From a virus: a stretch of DNA of 64,000 nucleotides. Every line of letters starts with the position of its first letter. Position 1 is the stretch's first letter. Both the position numbers and the translations under genes were made by a program. Below, piece by piece: positions 3,614-33,300 of the stretch. The stretch lies in the UHGV virus genome UHGV-0141541; one strand, written 5' to 3'. The notes under the pieces are model-generated. The model searched no databases. It saw only the letters and a list, made by a program, of their open reading frames with translations, and was not told the DNA's origin.

Positions 3614-4501
3614 TTACTTAAGTCCAATTTTCCCCAGACCGGAGGCCAACTTATCCATAGTCGACTTGTTCTTCGGTTGGGATATTGTGTAGGTCGATTT
3701 GGAATGTGAGCCTACACCCTGCTTGGCTTCGCTACGCATCAATGCGTCAGCTTCCGGATCTGCCCGCACAATGCGTTCAATCGCGGATTCAAACGGCAAC
3801 GGCTTACCTTCACCGTCAACCAGAACAGCTCGTTCTTTGTGACCTGCCGGTTTGTCATAACCCACTACGCTACCGTCTTCACCCACTTCAAAATGAGAAC
3901 CGTAGATCACGCGGGCTTTGGCCGGGGTCATCAGAACTTTGTCACGTAGGAAGAGAGAGTTACTGAAGGAAGCGCCCACGGTCATCTCGACTAATTGAGA
4001 TTTCAGTGATGCGTTTTCACTTTCCAGTGCTGCATAACGTTCGTCACGCTGTGCCAGCTCTGCCTGGTGTGCTTCGATCATCTGTTTTTTAACAGCATCG
4101 AACTCACCACGACGCTCCAGTTCAGCTTGCTCCGCCTCACGACGTGCGTTTTCTGCGGCCTGTTCAGCTTCTAAAAGCTGGCGAGCACGAGCCGGATCGA
4201 TATCACCGTACTGAGCAAGCTGATCGGCCAATGTGCGCTCTTTCTCTTTGCGCTTCATGTTCTCCTTCAGCAGTTCAGCACCAGCTTTCTTGGTTTTACG
4301 AAGTTCGGCCAGTAACTCTTCCTGAGTCATGCCAGCGTATTCGTCATCGCCCTTCGGCTGCTCTTTTTGTTCACCCTGTTTGTCAGGATCTTGTGTACTC
4401 TGCTCATTATCAGCAGCTACACCGCCAGCGCCTCCACGCTCATGCGCTTCAGCGACATCCATCAGACCACGACGGGCCAAAAGCATTTGCCACAGATTCA
4501 T
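3614..4501 (-). CDS. scaffolding protein (putative)
   Basis: 295 aa; long E/A/Q/R-rich predicted coiled coil in the N-terminal half; located between portal and capsid genes. Confidence 0.45.
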   Translation of the reverse strand: MNLWQMLLARRGLMDVAEAHERGGAGGVAADNEQSTQDPDKQGEQKEQPKGDDEYAGMTQEELLAELRKTKKAGAELLKENMKRKEKERTLADQLAQYGDIDPARARQLLEAEQAAENARREAEQAELERRGEFDAVKKQMIEAHQAELAQRDERYAALESENASLKSQLVEMTVGASFSNSLFLRDKVLMTPAKARVIYGSHFEVGEDGSVVGYDKPAGHKERAVLVDGEGKPLPFESAIERIVRADPEADALMRSEAKQGVGSHSKSTYTISQPKNKSTMDKLASGLGKIGLK

Positions 4502-4522: not shown

Positions 4523-6097
4523 TCACTCGTTCTCTTGAGTAGATGAGTCCCCATTCCCTCGGGGTTGATCTTGCCCGCTTTCTTGGGCTGCACCACGATC
4601 ATAAGTAAGTACTGACTTATTTTCAAGGGTGTTTAGATCATTTTTTGGAGGAAAATTCAAGAGATCTTTATCAAATTCCTTTTTCATCGCCTCAGTAATG
4701 TTCGGGAAAATCTTCTCAATAAGCATTTCCATCTGGTGACGACGTACAGAGTCCGGTGCCTGAAGTAATGACAGTTTCTCGGCAACAGAAAATTCATCAG
4801 TAAGGCCACGAATATCGAAACTTTCTGGATACGCAATTAAAGAGTGGTCTTCGTCCAGATCTACCCCCATCCATTTCGCAACCAGTAGCATGATTTGGCG
4901 TTCAGCCCTTTCCAGACGCTCTGCTTTTGTGACAAGCAAGCTATTTACACGCTGGAAGTCATACATTTTTGCGGCACCAGATGAATTATCGATTCCCTGT
5001 GCGTTGTCCTGCTTCGTTCGCTCACCAGCTACACCAACTGAATGGTAGATTTCGTTAATCACCGTCTTAATCGTAGTGATGATCATCTGAGCTTGTTTCG
5101 GGTCTGGTGACAGATAAAACGGCTGGTTTCCACCTTCAGAATCGTAGGTGAAGACTCGCTTTGTGCCCATTTCAAGCACTTTAGTGTGGTTTTCATCACC
5201 AGGTAAAAGCGACTGTACCGGTATAGCCAACTGGCTAAATGTCTGATCCTGAATAATGGCATCAAGGTTTGACAGATAGTTTGCAACCGCACGATCAAGA
5301 TAAGCGATATCATCGATTAACGATGGGCTGAAATACGGTGATTCACTTTCTCCAATACAATCAACAGGAAACACAGGAACTACGCCGAGATTATGCTCAC
5401 CGCTATCCTCTAAAATAACTTTTGCCTGACGGCGACCTGCTCCACCAGCGCCCTTCTTCACTTCCTCACGGAACAGATACCACTCGTTTTGTGTCCACAG
5501 ACGATAACGTTGGTATTCCTGACCTGTAGAAGTAAAAGGATCTGCGTCATCACGAGCGACTTCCACAATTAACGCCCATAACATATTCCCGTCGTCGTCC
5601 CATGCCACATCCAGCATTTGCTGAGGTGAAATCCAGTAGGCGTAGGCACGAGCATCTTTCTTTTTCTCGTCAGCTACTGACTCAACATCACCACTCATTG
5701 TGCTATCAACAACAACCCAGATACGGCCGTAGATTGACGATTGCAAATCAATGGCGGCCATAAATGAGTCAATAGAGGCATTCTGGCGAGTCGCACGTTT
5801 CCAGAAATTGCGGATCTGCTCTGGTGCCTCTTCGATATTTCTATGAATGTCTTCTTTAAAGAGATATTTGTTGATGAGGTTTACCACCTCACGAGTGTGG
5901 TTGAAGCGATAAGCACGCTCAACTCGCTCCTTAAACTCCTGATCTCCCTCTTTAAAGTAACGAAAGATATTGTCTGTAAACCAACCACGCCCGCCAGCGT
6001 AAGTGCTGGCGAGGAAGTCCCAATGTTCTTTTTTCTTTTCGTATTCCGGGTGGCGTCGCGCCACCAGATCCTTAATTTGTTTGTCGTTCAATTCCAT
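4523..6097 (-). CDS. portal protein (putative)
   Basis: 524 aa ORF immediately downstream of terminase large subunit; size and position typical of portal; no motif verified. Confidence 0.55.
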   Translation of the reverse strand: MELNDKQIKDLVARRHPEYEKKKEHWDFLASTYAGGRGWFTDNIFRYFKEGDQEFKERVERAYRFNHTREVVNLINKYLFKEDIHRNIEEAPEQIRNFWKRATRQNASIDSFMAAIDLQSSIYGRIWVVVDSTMSGDVESVADEKKKDARAYAYWISPQQMLDVAWDDDGNMLWALIVEVARDDADPFTSTGQEYQRYRLWTQNEWYLFREEVKKGAGGAGRRQAKVILEDSGEHNLGVVPVFPVDCIGESESPYFSPSLIDDIAYLDRAVANYLSNLDAIIQDQTFSQLAIPVQSLLPGDENHTKVLEMGTKRVFTYDSEGGNQPFYLSPDPKQAQMIITTIKTVINEIYHSVGVAGERTKQDNAQGIDNSSGAAKMYDFQRVNSLLVTKAERLERAERQIMLLVAKWMGVDLDEDHSLIAYPESFDIRGLTDEFSVAEKLSLLQAPDSVRRHQMEMLIEKIFPNITEAMKKEFDKDLLNFPPKNDLNTLENKSVLTYDRGAAQESGQDQPRGNGDSSTQENE

Positions 6098-19859: not shown

Positions 19860-20780
19860 GGGATAAAATCAGGAGTTGAATAAATACGAAAAAGGAGGCG
19901 ACACCCCTCCTTCCCTCCCCACTTATACATACCTGGCTTCTTCGCTATACATGTTGTGTTTTCTTCGTGTTTTATCTGTCTCAACCTCTCTATAGGCGTT
20001 AATGCTCACTCCTTCCAGAACGTTCTATACGGCGACTATTTCTGTTGGTGAATTGGGTGTGTTGTTCTCTCTGTCGGTGTATGTGGTTTCGTTCGTTTTG
20101 CGGTGGTTCTTCTATGGGGTGTTCTCGTCGTTTTGGTGATTGTTCTTCTCCGTGTATGGAGTAATGGCAGGTGGGCGATTCCTTTCGTTATTGTGTTTGA
20201 GTTGTTTGTCTGGAGTGCGTGAAGGGCTTTTGTAGTTATTCGTGTATTGGGTAATGGCGTTTCCCGTGATTGTTATGTTTCGTGTCTTTTGGGATTGAGA
20301 GAAACCTTGCGGTTACAGGCTTCGTTGGGGTTTCAGCGGTTCAGGTGTTTCTTCGCTGTTTGGGTAATGGCGTGTCGTGGGTATCGCGCGTATGAATGTT
20401 TTCGGATTGCCTGTGAAAGTTAGGTTGGTTGTCCGGTAGCCTGGGGAGAAGAGGTGGGTCTTTTCGGTAGCCTGCCATAAAGAGGTTGGTTGTTTTGGGT
20501 AATGGCATATGTGTTATTTGGTTGTTTTGTTATGCCTGAAAATAAGTTGTTTATATGGTTGTGTAACGCAACGGGAGCGATTTTGAGCGTGTGTTTTTGT
20601 TGGTAGTGTGTTGAGTCGTCTGTGGTGAAATTTGGACGCTGTGGCGCTATCTGCTGCGTAGAATTACGGGTATAAGAAGTGATGTGTGATAACGTCAATT
20701 TTTTAGACCAAATCGGGAGAAAGCGTTGATGTTTCGTTGATCTGTTATTTAGTTGTTTTCTTATTGGTATAAACAACCAT
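19860..20780. other. GT-rich noncoding tract with internal repeats (no credible ORF)
   Basis: strong G+T excess on the given strand; repeated GGGTAATGGC (about 4 copies) and a ~60-bp unit shared with 17259-17320. Confidence 0.5.
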
Positions 20781-21799: not shown

Positions 21800-22099
21800 T
21801 TACCATTGCCAGCACTCAAGCCCTTCAACGACCGGTGCGCCACAATCAAAATGTACAGAGTCAAAGCCTACATCAAGTACTTTCTGAATGTTCGCAATCG
21901 CGCCCTCGGATATACCGTATCGACGCAACTCATCTTTCCAGTCATCGTCCTGTAACCCGGCGTGGACAATGCAACCGTACTCAATTTGTGAAACCCAATC
22001 CAGCTCATTGCTTGCGATCATGAATCGGCAAGCATCTTCCTCTGATGTATGAGATGAGCTGATCAATGCCACCTGGTAGGCTTGGGTAATGTTCAACAT
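21800..22099 (-). CDS. hypothetical protein
   Basis: ORF track 21800-22108; start moved to MLNITQ (RBS GGAG); motif family 1 copy at 22113-22145. Confidence 0.45.
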   Translation of the reverse strand: MLNITQAYQVALISSSHTSEEDACRFMIASNELDWVSQIEYGCIVHAGLQDDDWKDELRRYGISEGAIANIQKVLDVGFDSVHFDCGAPVVEGLECWQW

Positions 22100-22210
22100 T
22101 TCAACCACTCCAAAACAAGTTGTTTTCTTATGTGGTTTATTATCTCCATCAACAAAAGGCAGAAAACAAATTGTTTTAGGTACTGTGTAAATCAGAAGGG
22201 ATTGTGTCTA

Positions 22211-22260: not shown

Positions 22261-24294
22261 TTACTTAACCTGGTGGCCAGGTTTAGCACCAGCATCCGGG
22301 CTTAACAGGAAGATATCTTTCCCGCCGGGGCCAGCAGCCATCACCATGCCTTCAGAGATACCGAAGCGCATTTTACGCGGAGCCAGGTTAGCCACCATAA
22401 TGGTGTGACGACCAATCAGTGCCTGTGGATCTGGATAAGCGGAACGGATGCCTGAGAAGACATTACGCTTTTCACCACCGAGATCCAGCGTCAGGCGAAG
22501 CAGTTTGTCAGAACCTTCGACAAACTCCGCGTTTTCAATCAGCGCCACACGCAGGTCAACTTTGGCGAAGTCGTCAAAGGTGATGGTTTCCTGAATCGGG
22601 TCGTCAGCCAGTGGGCCAGTTACCGGTGCAGCTGTGGCTTTCACTTCTTCTTTGGATGCTTCCACCAGTGCTTCCACCTGTTTCATATCGATACGGTTAT
22701 ACAGTGCCTTGAACGGATTCACTTTATGGCCCAGCAGCGGTTGCTGGATACCATCCCAAGTCAGTTCTGTATTCAGGAATGCTTCTGCACGTTCAGTCAG
22801 TTTCGGCAGTACCGGTTTCAGGTACGTCATCAGCACGCGGAACAGGTTAATGCCCATAGAGCAAATCGCCTGCAGATCGGCATCGCGTCCTTCCTGCTTC
22901 GCCACCACCCACGGAGCCTGTTCATCGACATAGCGGTTAGCCAGATCAGCCAGCGCCATGATTTCACGAATCGCTTTACCAAATTCGCGGCTTTCCCATG
23001 CTTCACCAATCACTTCAGCGGCATCAGTAAAGGTTTTGTACAGTTGCGGGTCAGCCAGTTCGCCTGCCAGCACACCGTCAAAACGCTTATTGATAAAGCC
23101 CGCGTTACGGGACGCCAGATTCACCACTTTGTTCACGATATCGGCATTCACGCGCTGAACGAAATCCTCCAGGTTGAGATCGATATCATCAATGCGCGAA
23201 GAGAGTTTCGCAGTGTAGTAGTAACGCAGGCTGTCAGCGTCAAAATGATTCAGCCAGGTGCTGGCTTTAATAAAGGTGCCGCGAGACTTGGACATCTTCG
23301 CACCGTTCACCGTCACATAGCCATGAACAAACAGGTTGGTCGGCTTGCGGAAGTTGCTGCCTTCCAGCATGGCAGGCCAGAACAGGCTGTGGAAGTAAAC
23401 GATATCTTTACCGATGAAGTGGTACAGCTCGGCGGTGGAGTCTTTCTTCCAGTATTCGTCGAAGCTGGTAGTGTCGCCGCGTTTGTCGCACAGATTCTTG
23501 AAGGAACCCATGTAGCCAATCGGTGCGTCCAGCCAGACGTAGAAGTATTTGCCCGGTGCGTTCGGAATTTCAAAACCGAAGTAAGGTGCGTCACGGGAGA
23601 TATCCCACTGTTGCAGGCCAGATTCAAACCACTCCTGCATTTTGTTTGCCACCTGCTCCTGCAACGCACCGCTGCGGGTCCATGCCTGCAACATTTCGCT
23701 GAAAGAAGGCAGATCAAAGAAGAAGTGTTCGGAATCACGCATTACCGGTGTAGCGCCAGAAACCACTGATTTCGGCTCGATCAGTTCCGTCGGGCTGTAG
23801 GTCGCGCCGCAGACTTCACAGTTATCGCCGTATTGATCCGGCGCTTTACATTTCGGGCATGTGCCTTTTACAAAACGGTCCGGCAGGAACATGCCTTTTT
23901 CCGGGTCGTACAGCTGAGAGATGGTGCGGTTTTTAATAAAACCGTTCTCTTTCAGGCGAGTATAGATAAGCTCGGACAACTGACGGTTCTCTTCGCTGTG
24001 CGTCGAGTGATAGTTGTCATAGCTGATGTTAAAGCCTGCGAAATCAGTCTGATGTTCCTGACTCATTTCGCCAATCATCTGTTCCGGTGTGATACCAAGC
24101 TGCTGTGCTTTCAGCATGATTGGCGTACCGTGGGCATCGTCGGCACAGATGAAATTAACCTCGTGGCCGCGCATTCGCTGGTAACGAACCCAGACATCAG
24201 CCTGGATGTGCTCCAGCATATGGCCGAGGTGGATTGAGCCGTTAGCGTACGGCAGCGCGCACGTCACCAGAATTTTCTTCGCGACTTGGGTCAT
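22261..24294 (-). CDS. metG: methionine--tRNA ligase, host-type
   Basis: 677 aa starting [26 protein letters not shown] (HIGH motif), KMSKS present, C-terminal tRNA-binding domain; the 720-aa ORF-track start is an upstream extension. Confidence 0.95.
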
Positions 24295-24451
24295 AGTAGG
24301 CATTACTTCTTTGTAGTGAAAAGGGGCTTGATAGTAACAAAATGGCCTTATGTCTGCCATGTGATAACAGCATTTCTCATAAATGATTAAATGTCGTAGC
24401 TGGAGTACACTACAAGGCGACAATTGCGCAAATTAAAATAAAGGAGACGGG

Positions 24452-25552
24452 ATGAGCGAGTCCAAATCGCCGGATGCCCTGAGAGCAATGGTAGCCGGTA
24501 CGCTGGCTAATTTTCAGCACCCAACCCTGAAACACAACCTGACTACGCTTAAAGCGTTACACCATGTTGCGTTGATGGATGACACACTGCATGTCGAACT
24601 AATCATGCCTTTCGTGTGGAATAAGCCTTTTGAAGACCTGAAAGAGCAATGTAGTGGTGATCTGCTCCGTATCACTGGCGCAAAGGCTATTGACTGGAAG
24701 CTGTCGTACAACATTGCCACGCTTAAGCGCGTCAAAAACCAACCAGGCATTAATGGCGTTAAGAACATTATCGCCGTCAGCTCAGGCAAGGGCGGCGTGG
24801 GTAAATCCTCCACGGCGGTAAACCTGGCACTGGCGTTGGCTGCTGAAGGTGCGAAAGTTGGTATTTTGGATGCCGATATCTATGGTCCATCAATTCCAAC
24901 CATGCTGGGCGCGGAAAACCAACGTCCAACCTCACCTGACGGTACTCACATGGCACCTATCATGTCTCATGGCCTGGCAACCAACTCTATTGGTTATCTG
25001 GTCACCGACGACAATGCAATGGTGTGGCGTGGACCGATGGCCAGCAAGGCGCTGATGCAGATGTTGCAGGAAACTCTATGGCCTGATCTGGACTATCTCG
25101 TTCTCGATATGCCGCCGGGCACTGGTGATATTCAGTTGACGCTGGCGCAGAACATTCCTGTAACTGGTGCGGTTGTGGTAACTACGCCGCAAGACATCGC
25201 GCTGATCGATGCGAAGAAAGGCATTGTGATGTTCGAAAAAGTCGAAGTGCCGGTACTGGGTATCGTTGAAAACATGAGTGTGCATATTTGCAGTAACTGC
25301 GGTCATCACGAGCCAATTTTTGGCACCGGTGGCGCACAGAAACTGGCCGAGAAATACAACACGCAGTTGTTAGGCCAAATGCCACTTCATATCTCTCTTC
25401 GTGAAGATCTGGATAACGGAACACCAACCGTTATTAGTCGTCCAGATAGCGAATTTACAGCTATTTATCGTGACCTCGCAGATCGCGTTGCTGCCCAAAT
25501 GTATTGGCAAGGTGAAGTAATACCTGGCGAAATCGCATTCCGCGCAGTGTGA
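24452..25552 (+). CDS. apbC: iron-sulfur cluster carrier protein ApbC/Mrp, host-type
   Basis: 366 aa; deviant Walker A SSGKGGVGKSS, CxxC motif (CSNCGH); divergent from metG with 157-bp intergenic region, the arrangement I recall for E. coli. Confidence 0.93.
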   Translation: MSESKSPDALRAMVAGTLANFQHPTLKHNLTTLKALHHVALMDDTLHVELIMPFVWNKPFEDLKEQCSGDLLRITGAKAIDWKLSYNIATLKRVKNQPGINGVKNIIAVSSGKGGVGKSSTAVNLALALAAEGAKVGILDADIYGPSIPTMLGAENQRPTSPDGTHMAPIMSHGLATNSIGYLVTDDNAMVWRGPMASKALMQMLQETLWPDLDYLVLDMPPGTGDIQLTLAQNIPVTGAVVVTTPQDIALIDAKKGIVMFEKVEVPVLGIVENMSVHICSNCGHHEPIFGTGGAQKLAEKYNTQLLGQMPLHISLREDLDNGTPTVISRPDSEFTAIYRDLADRVAAQMYWQGEVIPGEIAFRAV

Positions 25553-25553
25553 T

Positions 25554-25580
25554 AAAAAGGCGGTGCATTGCACCGCCTAA
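25554..25580. terminator. bidirectional hairpin terminator between apbC and the UmuD'-like gene
   Basis: AGGCGGTGCA-TT-GCACCGCCT flanked by A-run and T-rich sequence. Confidence 0.55.
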
Positions 25581-25589
25581 TCAGTTCTC

Positions 25590-25979
25590 CTACATCACGG
25601 GACAATCATCAAACTCGCCACTTCTTGCGTCGTTGATAATGTGAGTGATCACACCAAACACGGCATTGCTGCCCGTGCATCCATCGTCATCCTTTGGCAA
25701 TGCTTCCTTCTTACCGGTTCTTAAATCCTCCAGATGCTGACGTGGGTACTTCCGGTATCTTTTTACGCGATATTCCCCATCCAGAGCGCATACAAGCAGA
25801 GAACCATCAACCGGGGTAAGTGAGGAATCGACCACCAGCAATGCACCCTGTAATATTCCCTCACGATGATGACTATCAGCTGCCCTCATGAAGTAGGTCG
25901 CTGAAGGATGTCTAATTATCTGCTGATCAAGAGAAATACGGCTCTCAGCATAATCCGCCGCAGGAGAAGGGAAGCCCAT
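25590..25979 (-). CDS. UmuD'-like protein (P1 HumD-like), lacking the N-terminal cleavable arm
   Basis: 129 aa starting MGFPSPAADY, matching E. coli UmuD from Gly25 (the UmuD' start); ADSH in place of GDSM. Confidence 0.75.
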   Translation of the reverse strand: MGFPSPAADYAESRISLDQQIIRHPSATYFMRAADSHHREGILQGALLVVDSSLTPVDGSLLVCALDGEYRVKRYRKYPRQHLEDLRTGKKEALPKDDDGCTGSNAVFGVITHIINDARSGEFDDCPVM

Positions 25980-26152
25980 AGCGTTTTCACCTCAAAATAC
26001 TGTTTATCCATACAGTATACATTAAAGAAGCACCTTTGGTGCAAACGCGTTATGTACATCAACCACCGCTGATGACTTTGTGCGCTTTGCTACTATTCAT
26101 CACCGCTGGATCAGCGTAACCTCGTTACTAATCAATTAATAAGGAATTAGCC

Positions 26153-26629
26153 ATGCCTGCCCGCATTCCTCTCGATCCTGCATTGCCCAAAAATTTTGAC
26201 TGCACTCCTAACGAGAAACGCTCCAAAGCCCAGCTGGACGCCTGGTGGAACCATCCCTATGGAGTTACAGAACCTGACGGGAAAATTGTTGTTTATTGTC
26301 TGAATGGTGGGGCGTGGGACCGTCCATCCATGCTTTGTTTGGCAGATAACTATGATGAAGCCTGTGAACTTGCCGAAAGACAGCAGGCCAGCTGGGTAAA
26401 AACACGGTCTGAACCGACATTCATGTTTTCAAAAGAACCGCCATTTATACTGGCAAGGATGCCGCAGCGACCGGATCATCAACAAGAAATTGTTGCTGAA
26501 TTTTCCTCAAGGGATGAGATGAATCTCTTCTCATTAAGGCAGGAAGAAAGGGATCACGTCGAAGTGTCTCCAACTCTTGATCACAACCGGATGAACCTGG
26601 CCAACTCGCCTGGTACAGCAAAGAATTAG
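26153..26629 (+). CDS. hypothetical protein
   Basis: 158 aa ORF, no motif recognised. Confidence 0.5.
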   Translation: MPARIPLDPALPKNFDCTPNEKRSKAQLDAWWNHPYGVTEPDGKIVVYCLNGGAWDRPSMLCLADNYDEACELAERQQASWVKTRSEPTFMFSKEPPFILARMPQRPDHQQEIVAEFSSRDEMNLFSLRQEERDHVEVSPTLDHNRMNLANSPGTAKN

Positions 26630-26798
26630 AGATGTCTATTGCCCGACTTGAAAACGAAAAAGCCGCTATCCAAGCCCAGCATGAAGGGGTAGTGACCGGG
26701 TAGCTACGAGAACTGCCAACTATTCGGAAAAACGTACGCTAATTAGCGTACGTTTTCATTCCATTGGGCTTCAGACGCCTTCACCGTCTTGTTCTTTG

Positions 26799-27728
26799 CT
26801 ACGGATATTCGTAATGCATGTTTTCATCCGGATAAGGGTTGTCAAACGCATTTGCAGAAACACGGATCGTCAAATTATCCGATAATCCTTCGATCATCTC
26901 CAAAATCTCAGGCGGACAACTTTTGTCAAAGGTCAACACAAAGTCATAGATCAAACCGTCATCACTACTGTTTTCCTGTGTGTCCCATTCCAGCAATTCA
27001 AGATCTTCGTCTGTTATGCCAAGCTCCGCTGCCAGTCTGCTCTGAGAAGGTTTGCCATACTTTAGCTCCGGGTCAACCCTGTCGTCATTGACGCAGCCTC
27101 CAGCTTCAAGCTCGAAATCGTAAAAACCGCGCTTGCCAGCCATGCGGGGCAATATCACCTTCACAACTATATCAAGGGTGTCACCACAGAACGGCCTATC
27201 GTCCAGAGTCTCGCCCTTGTACTGGGTTTTGGCAATAGCCACCAATTTGTCACCACGATCCTCGATTTGCACATCGTCATAATAAGCATCGAAAAATTCC
27301 GCATTGGTTTCAGCCATCAAACCGGAAAGCTGGTCATCTATAAGAGATTGGCAATCGGGTAGTAAGACTTCGACAATATAGTTTTCAAGTGTGTCATGGA
27401 TCCAGACATTTCCACCACATAGCCCTTCACTGGTAAGCATGTCTGATAGAAGCCTGGCGAGGTCAATTGACTGGGTAAGGTCATTTGGCAAACCGTTGAG
27501 TTTCGAGCGTCTGTCATTCATCAACGGTATATCAGGAATGAAGATATATGCCTCTTCGAGCTGAACCAGCGGGTAGGTCTTCTCGGCCATGAGTGCCGCA
27601 TGGCTCTTGTAACCGAAAAATGCTGCAACCAGCTCTCTTGCATGTGAAGCTTTTAGTTTTTCAGTGGATTGGGAAACATGATTTTGACGTAGGAAATCTG
27701 CGCAAAGTTTTGAGAGATCGGTACTCAT
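26799..27728 (-). CDS. highly acidic hypothetical protein
   Basis: 309 aa with a large excess of D/E over K/R; no motif recognised. Confidence 0.55.
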   Translation of the reverse strand: MSTDLSKLCADFLRQNHVSQSTEKLKASHARELVAAFFGYKSHAALMAEKTYPLVQLEEAYIFIPDIPLMNDRRSKLNGLPNDLTQSIDLARLLSDMLTSEGLCGGNVWIHDTLENYIVEVLLPDCQSLIDDQLSGLMAETNAEFFDAYYDDVQIEDRGDKLVAIAKTQYKGETLDDRPFCGDTLDIVVKVILPRMAGKRGFYDFELEAGGCVNDDRVDPELKYGKPSQSRLAAELGITDEDLELLEWDTQENSSDDGLIYDFVLTFDKSCPPEILEMIEGLSDNLTIRVSANAFDNPYPDENMHYEYP

Positions 27729-28222
27729 AGTAGTGATCCTGTCTTAACAATGCTGGACTTTAAAAGTAGTGGTAAGTGTTTAAGTCACTACGCTTGCCAG
27801 CATGGTTAATAAAGATCAACTGTCATTGGCAGGTAGTTCGACTTGCTGTCTTTTAGGTCACTTACAGCCTTGGCAATCAGCTCCGATACCTAAGATACCA
27901 GAATGGCCGATTTTAGCAAGACGAATAAATGATGCTTTCAGCTAGCCATGTCCTAGCATGGCCAGATTTTGGGTGTTCGTATTTATTTCATTGACCAGCA
28001 TTATAATCGTTAATCTGGTTACTCGGAGACGGGCTGCAACATCGAGCGCAGCGCGTGAAGGTGGAAGGATAAAAGTTGGCAGTTATCTCAGCTACCCGGT
28101 CACTCTCCCATGAAGTAGTTCTGAACCGGATTAGAGAAATGCAAAACGATAACAGAGGCTAAATCGAGGTAGAAAACACATTATTTAAGGCCACTAATTG
28201 TGGCCTTAAAGGGGAGAGATGC

Positions 28223-28747
28223 TTATTGGCTATGGCTAAAAATCAAATGAGACACTTCATGTGGTTGTAGCTCGTCAAGATCCGGTGCCACAAAACCTTT
28301 TCCGAAAGACTTCACAAGTGATTCACCAGCCGCATCCTTGTCACCTATTACACGAAAGTCATACGGCAGCATTGCAAGTTGACGACGTAATCCAGCTGAG
28401 AAAGTCGAACCTAACAGCGCCCATGAATTTCCGCCCGCGTTGTGCACTGCTGCACTTTTAAAAATCGACTCAGTTATCCATATTGGGCCATCTTTTAAAG
28501 GAAGATAGGTTCCCCAAAGTAACTGTCTGCCGTGTGATCGCGTGAAATACCGGGCCATCTTCGGATTGCTATGCTGCTTAGGAGCGCCTGGTCTGTATGT
28601 CTGATACCCAGCCAACATCCCATCAAACCTGTATAGAGGGAATGTAACAACTCCTTCGCTTTCATCGATCCACTGTCTATATGGGTGTATATCATGGCGG
28701 TAGTTACGAGTCAGCAAATGAGCTTCCAGCTTTCCAAATTTGGTCAT
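28223..28747 (-). CDS. putative Toprim-domain protein (primase-like catalytic core?)
   Basis: ORF track 28223-28786; start moved to MTKFGK (RBS GAGGGA); conserved Glu in ITES plus DxD-type VIGDKDAAGE resembles a Toprim signature; weak. Confidence 0.35.
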   Translation of the reverse strand: MTKFGKLEAHLLTRNYRHDIHPYRQWIDESEGVVTFPLYRFDGMLAGYQTYRPGAPKQHSNPKMARYFTRSHGRQLLWGTYLPLKDGPIWITESIFKSAAVHNAGGNSWALLGSTFSAGLRRQLAMLPYDFRVIGDKDAAGESLVKSFGKGFVAPDLDELQPHEVSHLIFSHSQ

Positions 28748-28760
28748 AACTTCGCATCCC

Positions 28761-29615
28761 TCATAACACTTCCCATTTATCACCATATTTCTCCATAGCT
28801 CTTAGCCAGTAAACATGGCCACTAGGCATAGTGATGTGAGGCTCACCAAACTCTTCTCCATGTACATCAAAGATGTCCCCAACAGAAAATTGGGGGATTT
28901 CTGTTCCGTTTTCACCTATATGTGTAATTCGTATACGTTTCGGTTGGGATTGTCCACCTTTGAGCGAGTTGTTCACTGCTCTGGCAATTTTCTCCCGCAA
29001 TTGCTGCGTTCCGTGATACGTAACCGCAATATCCCTCAACTCGTTCACCAGTTCTCGAATCTGGTGATCTTTAAGCTCATTATTTGGGTGATTGGTAACA
29101 ACTCTGGTTAATTCACCCTTGTCTTTTGCTCTTACGTATGCAGCTCTTGTGCATTCGACCCATGTATTACCGCCTACATTAACTTCGTAGATTAGGCTGG
29201 ACTTATCTGTCAATTCGGAACAAATACGGGCCGTGGTCTGGCAACTAGAGCATTCGCAGTTATCGCGGAAACCGTGGTCTACTGGCTTCGGTTTCACATC
29301 ATCAACTTTTTCTACCCTATCGGAATTTAAATACTTCGAAGCCTTGCTATGCCAATCGCTGGTTTTAGGATCTTGTCCATCCATCAAACGCCAGGCTTCA
29401 GCGATTAACTCATAACTAGTGACTGTAGCTTCCTGCGCATCACCAATAAGTCGTGTAATCTCTCTTTCAAGCCGACCGCCTAGCTCTGTTTTAGTGCAAT
29501 GTTCTGACCAATCGCCAGCCTCAAGCAGCGCGAGAATGCTTAAAATATCGTCCAATAGATCAGTGGTATTATCGACTTCCTTCTGAAACTCACCGGCTAC
29601 TGATTTATGCATCAT
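28761..29615 (-). CDS. hypothetical protein with Cys-rich segment
   Basis: 284 aa; CECSSCQ...C cluster; overlaps the downstream Toprim-like ORF by 26 nt in another frame. Confidence 0.5.
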   Translation of the reverse strand: MMHKSVAGEFQKEVDNTTDLLDDILSILALLEAGDWSEHCTKTELGGRLEREITRLIGDAQEATVTSYELIAEAWRLMDGQDPKTSDWHSKASKYLNSDRVEKVDDVKPKPVDHGFRDNCECSSCQTTARICSELTDKSSLIYEVNVGGNTWVECTRAAYVRAKDKGELTRVVTNHPNNELKDHQIRELVNELRDIAVTYHGTQQLREKIARAVNNSLKGGQSQPKRIRITHIGENGTEIPQFSVGDIFDVHGEEFGEPHITMPSGHVYWLRAMEKYGDKWEVL

Positions 29616-29833
29616 TCGTCATCCTCATCCGAGTCATCCTCATCACAGGATGAGAGTAGTGGGTTAGTCATTCGCCCTACTTGAGTGGCGTAGCCACGCC
29701 GACAGAGATTGCGCAGCACACTGTATATTTCGAACATCTCGGTTCGTTCATCGCCAACATCAAACTCAGATGCTATAGCGTGGCATTCAGTCGCGAGAGC
29801 CGATATTTTCTGAAATAACTCTGCTTTATTCAC
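29612..29833 (-). CDS. hypothetical small acidic protein
   Basis: 73 aa, 4-nt overlaps with both neighbours. Confidence 0.4.
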   Translation of the reverse strand: MNKAELFQKISALATECHAIASEFDVGDERTEMFEIYSVLRNLCRRGYATQVGRMTNPLLSSCDEDDSDEDDE

Positions 29834-30330
29834 TCTTCGACTCCTTTACGAAGCTGTTCAGCAATACTTACGCATATCTCTGCGCCTCTAATCAGCCCCG
29901 GAACGTTCTTGTTTGGCCCAACTTCACCATCAACAAAATCAATCATCGCGTTACGAGCCATATCCACGCCTTGCGCACGTACTTCAGCCAGAAAAGCATC
30001 GGTGGCTGGAGTCTCCGTTAATTCGCTAACCCAATTATCTCCGTGTTCGTCGGCACACATCTCATCGAATGCTCGCTCAGATTCTTTCAGGGCTGCATTC
30101 TCCGCCGCTAATGCGTCTCTCTGCGCCCGCAACTTCTCAATTTCGGCAGCCATGTAGTAACCAACCATAGCGAAGACGGCAAAAGAGTTGTCTGCCTCAT
30201 CAGGCGACACTGAGGCCATTAGCAGACCATCGTAATAATCGTGACTCCCATTGGTGATCGCCACCGCATAGGAGTCGTGGTTCTCACGCTTGTGAATGAG
30301 AACTACGGGGTTTTCGATTTTGTTACTCAT
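29830..30330 (-). CDS. hypothetical protein
   Basis: 166 aa ORF. Confidence 0.5.
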   Translation of the reverse strand: MSNKIENPVVLIHKRENHDSYAVAITNGSHDYYDGLLMASVSPDEADNSFAVFAMVGYYMAAEIEKLRAQRDALAAENAALKESERAFDEMCADEHGDNWVSELTETPATDAFLAEVRAQGVDMARNAMIDFVDGEVGPNKNVPGLIRGAEICVSIAEQLRKGVEE

Positions 30331-30468
30331 GTGTTTTTCTCTTCTTTGCTGTTACATAAGCACTACCAAGTGCTGGTTTATTTTCACAAATAAGAAAAGG
30401 TAGAAAACAATTTATTTAAGGCCACAACTTATGGCCTTTATTTATTCATGCCGAAGGATTTGTAGCGT

Positions 30469-30849
30469 CTAATTGCCGGATAAAATGGGGTGAGGTGCTT
30501 GCCAGTAGGCTCCACCGGTCCATGTGAACCCCATGCGAATAAGAGTGTTTATTGCGGCTTTGGTAGACTCAGATTCGACACTGGCTTTTCGAAACTCTTG
30601 AACCTCTTTCGCCAACCTGTATGTAATTGTGCAGGGGACGATTGCAGCCCAGCCTTTCTCATGACTGTTAATGACCATCTGGATGTGACCATCCAGAATA
30701 GGTTGATTAGGCATGTTATTGAAAACGTCTGCCTGTTTTTGAATGTGAATAAAAAGCCTTGCCAGCTCCATTTGCTCACTACGAGACAAGGGATTATCAA
30801 GAGGGCTTTTTGCAAAAGCGGCTATACGCTGTGCGTCAATGCCAAACAT
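30469..30849 (-). CDS. hypothetical protein
   Basis: 126 aa ORF; followed by hairpin GGCCATAAGTTGTGGCC. Confidence 0.5.
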   Translation of the reverse strand: MFGIDAQRIAAFAKSPLDNPLSRSEQMELARLFIHIQKQADVFNNMPNQPILDGHIQMVINSHEKGWAAIVPCTITYRLAKEVQEFRKASVESESTKAAINTLIRMGFTWTGGAYWQAPHPILSGN

Positions 30850-31553
30850 CAGCGCACCTCACCATCTTTATGGCTGGAGTTAACTTCCGCCATTAAATGT
30901 CTGACGTAATCGACAAGAGAGCCACCTGGTGGAATCTGGCATTCCTCAACTAACTGGAAGTAGATATCCGCTGCATTACGTGTATTGCTACCCGCACATA
31001 TTCTTTCTTCCCGAAGTGCATGAAGCTCGTTGATCAAACGGTCACACTCTCCGTTACGCTGATCCACAACGGCCTCAAGCTCTGCGACGCATTCACCTGG
31101 CGTCTTACCTTCTTTGCGTTGGATGGTAACGACGAAATCGCCAATTGCAGGGACGTTGTAATCCAGCTCAAGGTAGTTTTTGGCACCGCTGCGGACGAAC
31201 TCACCCGCGAACATGGTGGCGAACATCGCAGAGGCCACTTCGCCGTTGAAAAGTGACTCAAGATCTAACGGAGTCCCGGCAGCAAGAGCCTCTTTTGCTG
31301 TATCCATTGCATCCATGAACCGATCAAACTCACTAGCGCGCTTTTCCATGTCTTTCCATTGCTCGCTCCAACGTTTGGCAACGAAGTCTATGAATGTTTT
31401 CGCGGATTCATCAAAATTCCCCTCAAACTTAACGATGCCTTTATCAATAATGATCTGGCCTACCGCATCCTCTGCATAACCTTTCAATGTAAACTTGAAA
31501 GGAAAATCAGAATGGCCTGTGACGTTAAAATGCTCTAACTGGAGGTTGTTCAT
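30849..31553 (-). CDS. hypothetical protein
   Basis: 234 aa ORF; motif family 2 copy about 45 nt upstream. Confidence 0.5.
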   Translation of the reverse strand: MNNLQLEHFNVTGHSDFPFKFTLKGYAEDAVGQIIIDKGIVKFEGNFDESAKTFIDFVAKRWSEQWKDMEKRASEFDRFMDAMDTAKEALAAGTPLDLESLFNGEVASAMFATMFAGEFVRSGAKNYLELDYNVPAIGDFVVTIQRKEGKTPGECVAELEAVVDQRNGECDRLINELHALREERICAGSNTRNAADIYFQLVEECQIPPGGSLVDYVRHLMAEVNSSHKDGEVR

Positions 31554-31614
31554 GTGTTTTTCTCTTATCGTTTAGTCACTAAATTCTTACACAAATTAAG
31601 TAAGTATTTACCTA

Positions 31615-33300
31615 TCATTTAACGCGTTTGAAAACGTATACGCTGACTGTGATCCCTGTGTCTTCAAACTCGTTGGTAAACGACTTCCCTCTGGCATAAA
31701 CGTAATTATCCATCGTCATCCAGTCCAGTATTGGCGCAGTGCCCGGCAATACTGCTACAAGACGCCCGCCGACTTTCAGATGCCCCAGCGCAGCCATCGT
31801 GTGCTCTCTATGACGACCAAGCGAGTACGGCGGGTTCATAACGATTTTGTCGAACTGATAACCTGCGTTGTCCTCAGACCACTTTATGAAGTCGCAGCAA
31901 ATCGTGTTCGTATACCCTTTTCCACGCAGGATATCAGCGAAGAGAGGTGCGATTTCTATGCAGGTAACATCTTCCAGATCGGCGTTAATATAGGCCAGAA
32001 GATCCCCACGTCCGGCTTGAGGCTCCAGCAGCTTCTCACCAGGCTTCAATTCAGTGGCTCTGGCAACGTACTCAGCAATCAAGCGTGGGGTAGGGTAGAA
32101 CTGGTGTGATTTTGTATCCGGTATTAAACCGGTAGCCACAATCGTATTTAGCGTATGGCCGATGTCATACGGGAACTGCCAGTGCTTTTTCTCCTGCACG
32201 CCGCCAATGAAGCTCAGTGTGCGCTCAAGCTCTTCCACATGCGACTTCTGGAGAGCTAAATCAGAGAAGTACCATACGCCTTTGTCTTTGCTCAATCGCC
32301 CGTCACGAAGCGCAGTGCGAACCGGCACGGAGATCGTCTTCTGGATTAACCCGAACTGCTTTGGTGCCCGTGTTTTTGGGGCAGTTCGGCATGGCGCGGG
32401 GATTGCAGCAGGCATACTGTAAGCCAGCACCTCATTCAACTTCCAGGCCACGTCAGGATGTATTTCAAAGTGAACGTTGCCGTTCTTGAACATCTTCACG
32501 CGCATCAGATTTCCATCGACGTTCATCCAGTCACCGGTCTGGCAGTCGTTTGCCCTATACGCAGCTGATAGCACCTCAGCAGTGCGGTTGATGGTAATAA
32601 ATTCTTTGTGCGCGAAGAAATGAAGCAAGACACGTAGATCGTCGATGTAGTCCTCTTTGCGATAGTTCACGCTAACGCTGTCCCGCCAGAAATCAGAAAT
32701 GCAGTCAGCGATTATCAGCCGCTCGCTGAAACCGTTTGTCTTATTTGTCTTGTGCGCAGGACTCAGCGCCTTAAACAAGCCATACACGCGCTCAGAGAGA
32801 TATTTGTGCCTGTCATTCAGTAAATTAAGCATCGTGGGTATGACCGTTTCTGCTTTGAACTCCGGTACACCAACGAACTCTTTAACCTTCATCTGGTAGC
32901 CGGTTCTGTCAGTTTTGATGACTTCCTGTTTGCCCTCTATAAACTGCTCGCGCCACTCATCTCGACGGGAAGCTGGCATGATCAGCAAAACGTTAGTCAT
33001 GTCCGTGACCTTCCTCCAGTACTCGGCCCAAATATTCTGTTTCACCCATTCCAGATCGACTTTATCCAACCAACCTCGATTTAAACGCGAGCGATCTTCA
33101 TCTGGTCGATGGTTTAGTCTCAGCAGGCGATTAATCATGTTGTGGCGTTCGTCGCCATAAACGAAGTCGTGTACCTGATACATGAAGGCGATCTCTTTCT
33201 CGCACTCGGCCACGATTTCGTGGATGACATTCATTTCCTGACGATAGTCGATAGCCGTGTTTGAGCTGGCATCGTCGATGATGGAAAGGGCTGTATTCAT
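31615..33300 (-). CDS. large protein with C-terminal gamma-class N6-adenine DNA methyltransferase domain
   Basis: 561 aa; motif X QFYPTP, motif I LLEPQAGRGDL, motif IV VMNPPY in the C-terminal ~200 aa; N-terminal ~350 aa unassigned. Confidence 0.7.
   Translation of the reverse strand: MNTALSIIDDASSNTAIDYRQEMNVIHEIVAECEKEIAFMYQVHDFVYGDERHNMINRLLRLNHRPDEDRSRLNRGWLDKVDLEWVKQNIWAEYWRKVTDMTNVLLIMPASRRDEWREQFIEGKQEVIKTDRTGYQMKVKEFVGVPEFKAETVIPTMLNLLNDRHKYLSERVYGLFKALSPAHKTNKTNGFSERLIIADCISDFWRDSVSVNYRKEDYIDDLRVLLHFFAHKEFITINRTAEVLSAAYRANDCQTGDWMNVDGNLMRVKMFKNGNVHFEIHPDVAWKLNEVLAYSMPAAIPAPCRTAPKTRAPKQFGLIQKTISVPVRTALRDGRLSKDKGVWYFSDLALQKSHVEELERTLSFIGGVQEKKHWQFPYDIGHTLNTIVATGLIPDTKSHQFYPTPRLIAEYVARATELKPGEKLLEPQAGRGDLLAYINADLEDVTCIEIAPLFADILRGKGYTNTICCDFIKWSEDNAGYQFDKIVMNPPYSLGRHREHTMAALGHLKVGGRLVAVLPGTAPILDWMTMDNYVYARGKSFTNEFEDTGITVSVYVFKRVK

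Follow-up and report, generated by a model that had tools for sequence, protein, structure and literature searches.

TIMEs and mobile insertion cassettes, which reside mainly on enterobacterial plasmids, are bounded by Tn3-type inverted repeats of about 38 bp starting with GGGG, generate a 5-bp target duplication, carry no transposase and are presumed to be mobilised in trans (PMC13367494; PMC4133298). An element sharing these features was found in the virus genome UHGV-0141541, in a stretch of 64,000 nucleotides, indicated below as "the window". The element, located at 26686-28109 (1,424 bp), interrupts lxr, a gene known from phage P1, and carries a single open reading frame (ORF), orf309 (26799-27728, minus strand, with its ATG at 27728-27726), which codes for an acidic protein of 309 amino acids (aa) belonging to an undescribed family and is preceded by a structured leader RNA. 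Three other described systems are relevant for this cargo: riboswitches and other leaders sequestering the Shine-Dalgarno sequence; type III toxin-antitoxin systems such as ToxIN, where a pseudoknotted RNA immediately precedes a single protein gene on mobile elements; and the DNA mimics ArdA and Ocr, proteins of strong net negative charge, acting as single genes and carried by mobile elements. What is new here is a Tn3-type cassette not named before, whose RNA-plus-protein module is conserved across phyla and likewise undescribed.

The following explanation is proposed, and is judged reasonably probable as a whole. The window would belong to an E. coli phage-plasmid of about 110 kb, with a P1-type humD-lxr module. 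A non-autonomous element of the Tn3-family type has transposed into lxr, splitting it and leaving a 158-aa stump. Its cargo would be a self-contained module, much older than the element itself, made of a constitutive-looking promoter, a leader of about 160 nt and the 309-aa protein. The folded leader may hold translation off until it is remodelled by a signal, which could come from a ligand or small molecule, from the protein itself or from the state of the cell. The protein, acting on its own, would serve mobile elements as an accessory or conflict factor, in anti-defence or in a defence or toxin-like role.

A Tn3-type cassette inserted in lxr

The element is bounded by two terminal inverted repeats of 39 nt: GGGGTAGTGACCGGGTAGCTACGAGAACTGCCAACTATT at 26686-26724 (plus strand) and GGGAGAGTGACCGGGTAGCTGAGATAACTGCCAACTTTT, read on the minus strand, at 28071-28109, the left one being 85% complementary to the right one. 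The two arms begin with GGGGTAG and GGGAGAG, in keeping with the length of about 38 bp and the GGGG start of Tn3-type ends; the repeat motif occurs twice in the window, where no occurrence is expected by chance. Outside the repeats, the pentanucleotide ATGAA is found at 26681-26685 and again at 28110-28114, where it is followed by the displaced 3' remnant of lxr. The corresponding empty site, CAGCATGAAGTAGTTCTGAACCGG, is uninterrupted in the P1 isolate MH422554, so that both the 5-bp duplication and the unoccupied target typical of Tn3-type insertion are identifiable. Between the repeats orf309 is the only ORF, and neither a transposase nor a recombinase domain or fold is present in its product. 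The gene is the cargo of a small transposon that inserted in lxr, and is not a native phage gene. The original prediction had treated its product as a phage protein; besides the insertion, the absence of any homolog in 50,697 phage records searched by tblastn removes this premise.

The 158-aa ORF located on the other side of the left repeat (26153-26629, plus strand) is convergent with orf309, as originally described, and had been left there without an assignment. It is an ordinary, already known gene in decay: it corresponds to residues 1-150 of P1 Lxr ("LexA regulated function"), with 92% identity to P1 and 95% to isolate MH422554 by BLASTP, and it matches positions 1-151 of 194 of phrog_6164. 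Alignment with P1 shows that one C is missing from the run at 26601-26602: this 1-nt deletion shifts the frame and makes the ORF end early, at 26629. The full-length Lxr frame of 190-194 aa is not kept, being cut short both by the frameshift and by the insertion at 26685/26686, and the copy is therefore most likely a pseudogene, unlike its P1 counterpart. As in P1, it is divergent from humD, which codes for a UmuD'-like S24 peptidase (25590-25979, minus strand; Pfam Peptidase_S24, E 1.6e-9), with a LexA (SOS) box, TACTGTTTATCCATACAGTA (25998-26017), lying between the two genes; a LexA site is annotated at the equivalent P1 position. The humD-lxr stretch is 91-92% identical to P1 and P7 at the DNA level.

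Some expectations about the arrangement of the two ORFs have consequently to be abandoned. They had been seen as partners: the boundary of the transposable element, at 26685/26686, separates them. They had also been placed together within a bracketed host segment containing metG and apbC. The lxr copy is part of the P1-type backbone, sharing its LexA box with humD, and the sole repeat bracket present between 18 and 30 kb is the pair 26686-26724/28071-28109, which encloses the 309-aa gene alone; no bracket including metG, apbC and both ORFs was found in this interval.

The element is not confined to this replicon. Many unrelated plasmids contain the block corresponding to 26684-28109, with an identity of about 99%. 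Copies of the 1,424-bp element are present in IncN, IncX1, IncF and IncI plasmids, where the target duplication is TAAAA, and a third context is provided by a plasmid from Klebsiella variicola. The flanks shared by the IncN, IncX1, IncF and IncI copies correspond to a variant of MITESen1, a miniature element of 256 bp derived from Tn3 (sequence in Table S2 of PMC13367494), inside which the cassette is nested. In the Salmonella IncX1 plasmid pSTY3-1898 (locus L011) these flanks are found at about 3850-4000 and 5425-5530, and the same is observed in loci L002, L012, L013 and L015; cassette and MITESen1 may move as a composite unit of about 1.68 kb. The insertion, the repeats, the empty site and the spread among unrelated plasmids are established. 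A small transposable cassette, in several cases nested in MITESen1, moves a non-resistance gene among backbones as different as P1-like, IncN, IncX1, IncI, IncF and Klebsiella plasmids; this illustrates in a concrete case the shuffling of cargo by elements of this kind.

A candidate source of transposase was identified in the Citrobacter plasmid pA18-1. One repeat found there is about 94% identical to bases 2-35 of a 45-nt query taken from the left end, and forms the end of a Tn3-family transposon which includes tnpA, tnpR and a RelE/ParE toxin-antitoxin pair. Repeats similar to the ends of the element occur in about 600 plasmids. An autonomous Tn3-family transposon, with one matching end recovered, is therefore available in pA18-1, and a cognate transposon of this type, common on enterobacterial plasmids, may supply the transposase in trans.

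With respect to TIMEs, the element differs in length and content: its 1,424 bp include a complete gene, so that it is a cassette rather than a miniature element. None of the four TIMEs whose sequences are given in Table S2 of PMC13367494 corresponds to it in its repeats. Its cargo, moreover, is not a resistance gene.

A perfect palindrome of 14+14 nt, AAAACGTACGCTAA/TTAGCGTACGTTTT, is located at 26729-26756, next to the inner side of the left repeat and 42 nt past the stop codon of orf309. It is likely to work as a bidirectional terminator. It could also be a relic of back-to-back transposon ends: each of its halves resembles the inner end (…CGTACGCTAAG) of inverted repeats of the Tn21/Tn1721 type.

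A different segment, 1,665 bp long, bounded by inverted repeats of the same type (GGGGTAGTGACCGGGTAGCTGCGATAAC...), was observed in the Klebsiella pneumoniae plasmid pINF237_03 (locus L009, 6001-7665). It features no matching 5-bp duplication and no listed gene, and may represent another cassette with repeats of this family, or else a transposon in decay.

A conserved structured leader upstream of orf309

The about 190 nt located 5' of the start codon in orf309-family genes are nearly invariant over seven genera, and their conservation exceeds that of the coding sequence. In the window the leader extends from 27725 to 27887 (minus strand), running into the start codon of orf309, and is recognized by the covariance model with a score of 148.6 bits (E 6e-38); no other copy is present in the window. 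By an nhmmer profile the leader was found directly 5' of the gene in nearly all loci of the family; the covariance model recovers it at the remaining five, some of them from Alphaproteobacteria, and the only locus devoid of it contains an N-terminally truncated gene. It is kept in Gammaproteobacteria, Alphaproteobacteria and Melainabacteria, protein identity in the latter two falling to 35-40%.

The structure, derived on an alignment of 51 sequences, consists in about 160 nt of four helices (P1, P1a, P3 and P4), a kissing-loop pseudoknot and a helix sequestering the Shine-Dalgarno sequence (anti-SD helix). Helix P1 alternates between GCUG/CAGC and GUCG/CGAC, in 25 sequences each; P3 is formed by GCUGGC/GUCCAGC, while P4, GUAGUG/CACUAC, features several compensated variants. 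The pseudoknot joins the loops of P1a and P4 by AAGUG/CACUU, alternating with GAGCG/CGCUC: at one of its pairs GC is found 32 times and AU 14 times, at another CG and UA are found 22 times each. In the anti-SD helix a pyrimidine tract pairs with the Shine-Dalgarno sequence (AGGA/GAGG), which in the window is the AGGA at 27737-27740 (minus strand), forming the 3' strand of the helix. Its columns, 88-91 and 165-168, are paired in 88.7% of the cells, and all four pairs are found changed on both sides. For the leader as a whole, pairing is observed in 94-95% of cells, versus 26-53% in controls with slid partners; changes affecting both sides are seen at 12-15 pairs, and the observed values are not reached in any of 500 shuffles. 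The frequent G-U pairs fit the sense strand only, a number of unpaired nucleotides are invariant, and in the centroid fold of the window copy, taken alone, the Shine-Dalgarno sequence is enclosed.

A putative sigma-70 promoter may be read by eye upstream of the leader (27892-27919, minus strand): a -35 box TTGCTA (27919-27914) is followed, after a spacer of 16 nt, by an extended -10 element, TGGTATCTT (27900-27892). The pattern TGnTAnnnT of the extended -10 element is conserved across clades, and the leader lies between it and the start codon.

The association with the protein family is exclusive. An independent scan of viral and metagenome collections with an RNA pattern gave 115 matches: 78 of them, due to chance, were removed by nhmmer, leaving 37 true copies. 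All the 35 copies for which downstream sequence is available precede a member of the orf309 family, and the other two are cut by contig ends. Among these 35 copies, and in all orf309-family loci, the leader was never found upstream of any other gene family. The structure of the leader RNA, its one-to-one link with the orf309 family and the absence of an obligatory partner gene are established.

A fold backed by covariation, a 5' untranslated position on the sense strand and an expression platform hiding the Shine-Dalgarno sequence are the features of a structured cis-regulatory leader. The leader resembles riboswitches and Shine-Dalgarno-sequestering leaders, with which it shares position, a pseudoknotted multi-helix fold, invariant unpaired nucleotides and the type of expression platform. 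In contrast to them, it is tied to a single protein family, and no Rfam 15 match was obtained for either the window or the Melainabacteria copy at E values up to 1-10. In type III toxin-antitoxin systems, too, a pseudoknotted RNA directly precedes a lone protein gene carried by mobile elements, but the tandemly repeated antitoxin RNA and the ToxN-like endoribonuclease which define them are not found here. The comparison indicates a previously undescribed, probably regulatory RNA kept across phyla; its covarying pseudoknot, its predicted gating helix and the lack of an Rfam family make it a clean candidate for a new class.

An alternative pairing, between an invariant 5' GGAG and the anti-SD tract, is compatible with the alignment; as it could not be distinguished from slid controls, it was set aside as speculation. 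In Hahella ganghwensis (locus L021, 5868-5976) a partial second copy of the 5' half of the leader was observed (nhmmer E 1.8e-4), about 0.9 kb upstream of a complete leader-gene module and not followed by an orf309-family gene.

The acidic protein and its possible roles

The strong excess of Asp and Glu over Lys and Arg, from which the original prediction had started, is confirmed: the protein contains 59 acidic residues (34 Asp, 25 Glu) versus 26 basic ones (14 Lys, 12 Arg), with a net charge of -33 and a pI of 4.27. The charge is unevenly distributed, the first 60 residues being neutral to slightly basic and the most negative stretch being 226-285. Among 65 non-overlapping long ORFs of the window, orf309 ranks first by absolute charge and second by charge per residue; six of the 65 (orf309 and five of similar density) reach -0.099 per residue or below. 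Its acidity is real, but not exceptional within the window. It is also common to the family: in 190 relatives, the 225-aa core has a median net charge of -19 and a median pI of 4.48.

The family is large: 211 relatives were collected at 90% clustering, and at least 394 clusters are present at 50% identity. Its hosts include Vibrio, Shewanella, Acinetobacter, Hahella, Aeromonas, sulfur-oxidising symbionts, Alphaproteobacteria and Melainabacteria, and every annotated member is reported as hypothetical; exactly the protein of the window is found on 759 contigs. Residues 1-225 form the family core, and most members measure only 215-230 aa; the acidic domain at 226-300 may or may not be present, and most relatives lack it. 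Another optional feature is a C-terminal tail, VPNxRPKDQ...EIHAIRNRI, with an acidic, Phe-containing tip, which is missing from the window copy. In the C-terminal 70 aa or so of long members such as P0018, P0041 and P0063 the acidic tip ends with an aromatic residue (e.g. ...DQDDEFGDIF); it resembles the C-terminal peptide by which SSB recruits genome-maintenance proteins. Rare C-terminal fusions add a GMT-like winged helix-turn-helix, a Phage_ABA_S domain or a YozE SAM-like domain. Invariant residues are R14, K26, H29, Y40, H43, R73, W109 and N142, along with several Gly, Pro and Ala; conservation is strongest in the near-neutral, helical N-terminal region of the protein, where certain Arg, Lys, His and Tyr residues are invariant.

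AlphaFold2 gives a model of high confidence (pLDDT 89), in which a helical region (1-141) is followed by a five-stranded sheet (143-214) and then, at 231-291, by an acidic alpha/beta domain of small size. Structural matches are partial: the sheet is cystatin/NTF2-like, the helices are similar to those of HRDC, Tex and Spt6. An enzymatic fold, which would have spoken against the original proposal of a DNA mimic, was not found, and a viral structure library gave no match. Searches of Pfam, NCBIfam and PADLOC gave no match, and those of the PDB sequence set, by single sequence or profile, gave no credible one; a single weak match of unknown function, limited to the C-terminal domain, was obtained with PHROGs. 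Nothing relevant was found in the literature for the protein accessions, the repeat or the RNA sequence strings.

No neighbour gene is conserved across 38 loci of the family. The genes found nearby are variable and often of the conflict type: helix-turn-helix regulators, pPIWI-associated nucleases, AbiH, Fic, Zeta, HipA and KAP NTPase, as well as AbiE, TIR and pyocin/immunity genes in annotated loci. In two alphaproteobacterial plasmids, from Rhizobium rhizogenes (L169, 668-4410) and Labrenzia (L170, 7770-11473), one and the same cluster of four genes is found no more than a few kb away from the orf309-family gene; it comprises genes for a QueC-like 7-cyano-7-deazaguanine synthase and for a 394-aa XRE regulator, together with two hypothetical genes. 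SOS/mutagenesis or AbiE genes are also close by. The sharing of this cluster may reflect either a shared backbone or a functional link.

Composition, single-gene behavior, carriage by mobile elements and conflict-type neighborhoods point to orf309 as a conflict factor, and the role of this unannotated family could add a new player to the biology of plasmids and phages versus their hosts. Anti-defence is tentatively considered as its function, specific DNA mimicry making up a small part of this expectation; action as a defence or toxic effector is a more doubtful assignment, and what is left goes to other roles.

A number of observations weigh against the proposed explanation. As to the element, the inner TAAG motif, typical of many Tn3-family ends, is absent, positions 35-38 of the repeats being CTAT and CTTT (a further difference from TIMEs and mobile insertion cassettes), and the second intact end of the putative parent transposon was not recovered from pA18-1. 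As to expression, a simple consensus scan did not list the promoter at 27892-27919. The folding energy of the window leader, evaluated on the single sequence, is not unusual (z = -0.9). The extended anti-SD helix, although maintained within the gammaproteobacterial clade and by the centroid fold, is only 63% paired in the MAFFT alignment. The E. coli copy, in addition, reads GACAGGA where marine ones read GAAAGGA: the change from A to C breaks one anti-SD pair, and may loosen the predicted gating. A riboswitch, besides, usually controls several gene families, whereas the leader controls one alone. The functional class of orf309, finally, is suggested by context and composition.

Among the alternatives, the one that survives best, although rather unlikely, describes orf309 as a toxic effector of the abortive-infection type, serving defence or addiction, which would stay untranslated until infection or stress remodels the leader. 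The sequestration of the Shine-Dalgarno sequence by a covarying helix would suit such a protein, as would the stronger conservation of the leader RNA compared with the protein, and the location of the gene, which stands by itself within variable islands, close to toxin-antitoxin, Abi, pAgo-nuclease and NERD-helicase genes. Against it stand the negative PADLOC search and the absence of a toxin-like fold, the occurrence of the exact protein on so many contigs, and the weakened helix of the E. coli copy, which is not expected for a strong toxin; acidic proteins, moreover, are unusual as nucleases or membrane toxins.

Since the one-to-one link between leader and protein is unlike that of typical riboswitches, autoregulation or a ribonucleoprotein role are kept in view. 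Leader and protein would form a pair in which the HRDC-like, helical N-terminal region binds its own leader, the RNA being a partner rather than the sensor of a ligand; this is considered unlikely, to nearly the same degree as a toxic effector. A bolder version of the proposed explanation takes the leader as a riboswitch of a new class. Its ligand (a nucleotide second messenger, for instance) would report the entry of a mobile element or an active host defence, and the leader would switch on a stand-alone acidic counter-defence protein. The module, old and common to Proteobacteria and Melainabacteria, would now be spread among clinical enterobacterial plasmids by the Tn3-type cassette. Taken in all its parts, this version is held to be quite improbable.

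Still less is expected of the idea from which the study of this locus started, i.e. that orf309 is a DNA mimic, blocking type I restriction enzymes or other DNA-binding defence proteins in the way of Ocr and ArdA. The negative charge of the protein and of the family core, the carriage by plasmids and genomic islands, the action as a single gene and the failure to find an enzymatic fold are all compatible with it, and it is the charge that would suggest specific mimicry. Its premises are weakened by the findings reported above: the gene is not a phage gene, the conserved core is near-neutral in its best conserved part, and the acidic domain at 226-300 is mostly absent from the family. Unlike ArdA and Ocr, orf309 is found neither in phages nor consistently in leading regions; it is larger, with its 309 aa organized in three regions, the conserved core is not its most acidic part, and it features no sequence or fold similarity to known mimics.

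The conserved block upstream of orf309 might in principle act as DNA, serving for recombination, as an origin or as a single-strand promoter; its very high nucleotide conservation could be read in this sense. This is very improbable: the block sits between a conserved -10 element and the Shine-Dalgarno sequence, compensatory changes preserve its helices, its frequent G-U pairs become C-A mismatches on the opposite strand, and the covariance score falls from 148.6 to 14.6 bits when the reverse strand is analyzed. That orf309, as sole ORF between the repeats, is a novel transposase moving the element is effectively refuted: more than 80 loci encode relatives, and the repeat core is absent from all six non-plasmid loci checked, four of them with chromosomal homologs; the relatives on Vibrio and Hahella chromosomes, being devoid of repeats, identify it as cargo; its product lacks any DDE, HUH or recombinase signature or fold; and the repeats match a conventional Tn3-family transposon with its own tnpA.

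Replicon and adjoining segments

Over 2.8 kb including both ORFs (25500-28300) the window is 100% identical to the E. coli plasmid pS2-S1K81-2 (111.9 kb). The metG-apbC-humD stretch is about 96-97% identical to the phage-plasmids CMS-2020a, Cyrano and PhiR41_1. A full-length, host-like metG, coding for methionine-tRNA ligase, and apbC/mrp are located at 22261-25552, adjoining humD, where P1 has phd-doc. As the three phage-plasmids feature the same arrangement, it is a trait of the lineage rather than a private acquisition.

A non-coding stretch of about 750 nt is found at 20030-20780. It is rich in G+T (GC skew +0.36, AT skew -0.32), contains three copies of TTGGGTAATGGCG (at about 20247, 20360 and 20495) at intervals of 90-135 nt, and is about 73% similar, at the DNA level, to a region annotated as "hypothetical protein" in Salmonella phage SSU5. 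It could be an iteron/origin region or a long non-coding RNA.

The minus-strand genes at 28223-33300 include those for a toprim/primase-like protein of 187 aa (PHROG DNA primase) and for a DUF4942 protein of 561 aa, with a weak N6-methyltransferase signature; a DUF5983 gene is located at 21800-22108. Toprim/primase-like, DUF4942 and DUF5983 families are common in the leading, or establishment, regions of plasmids.

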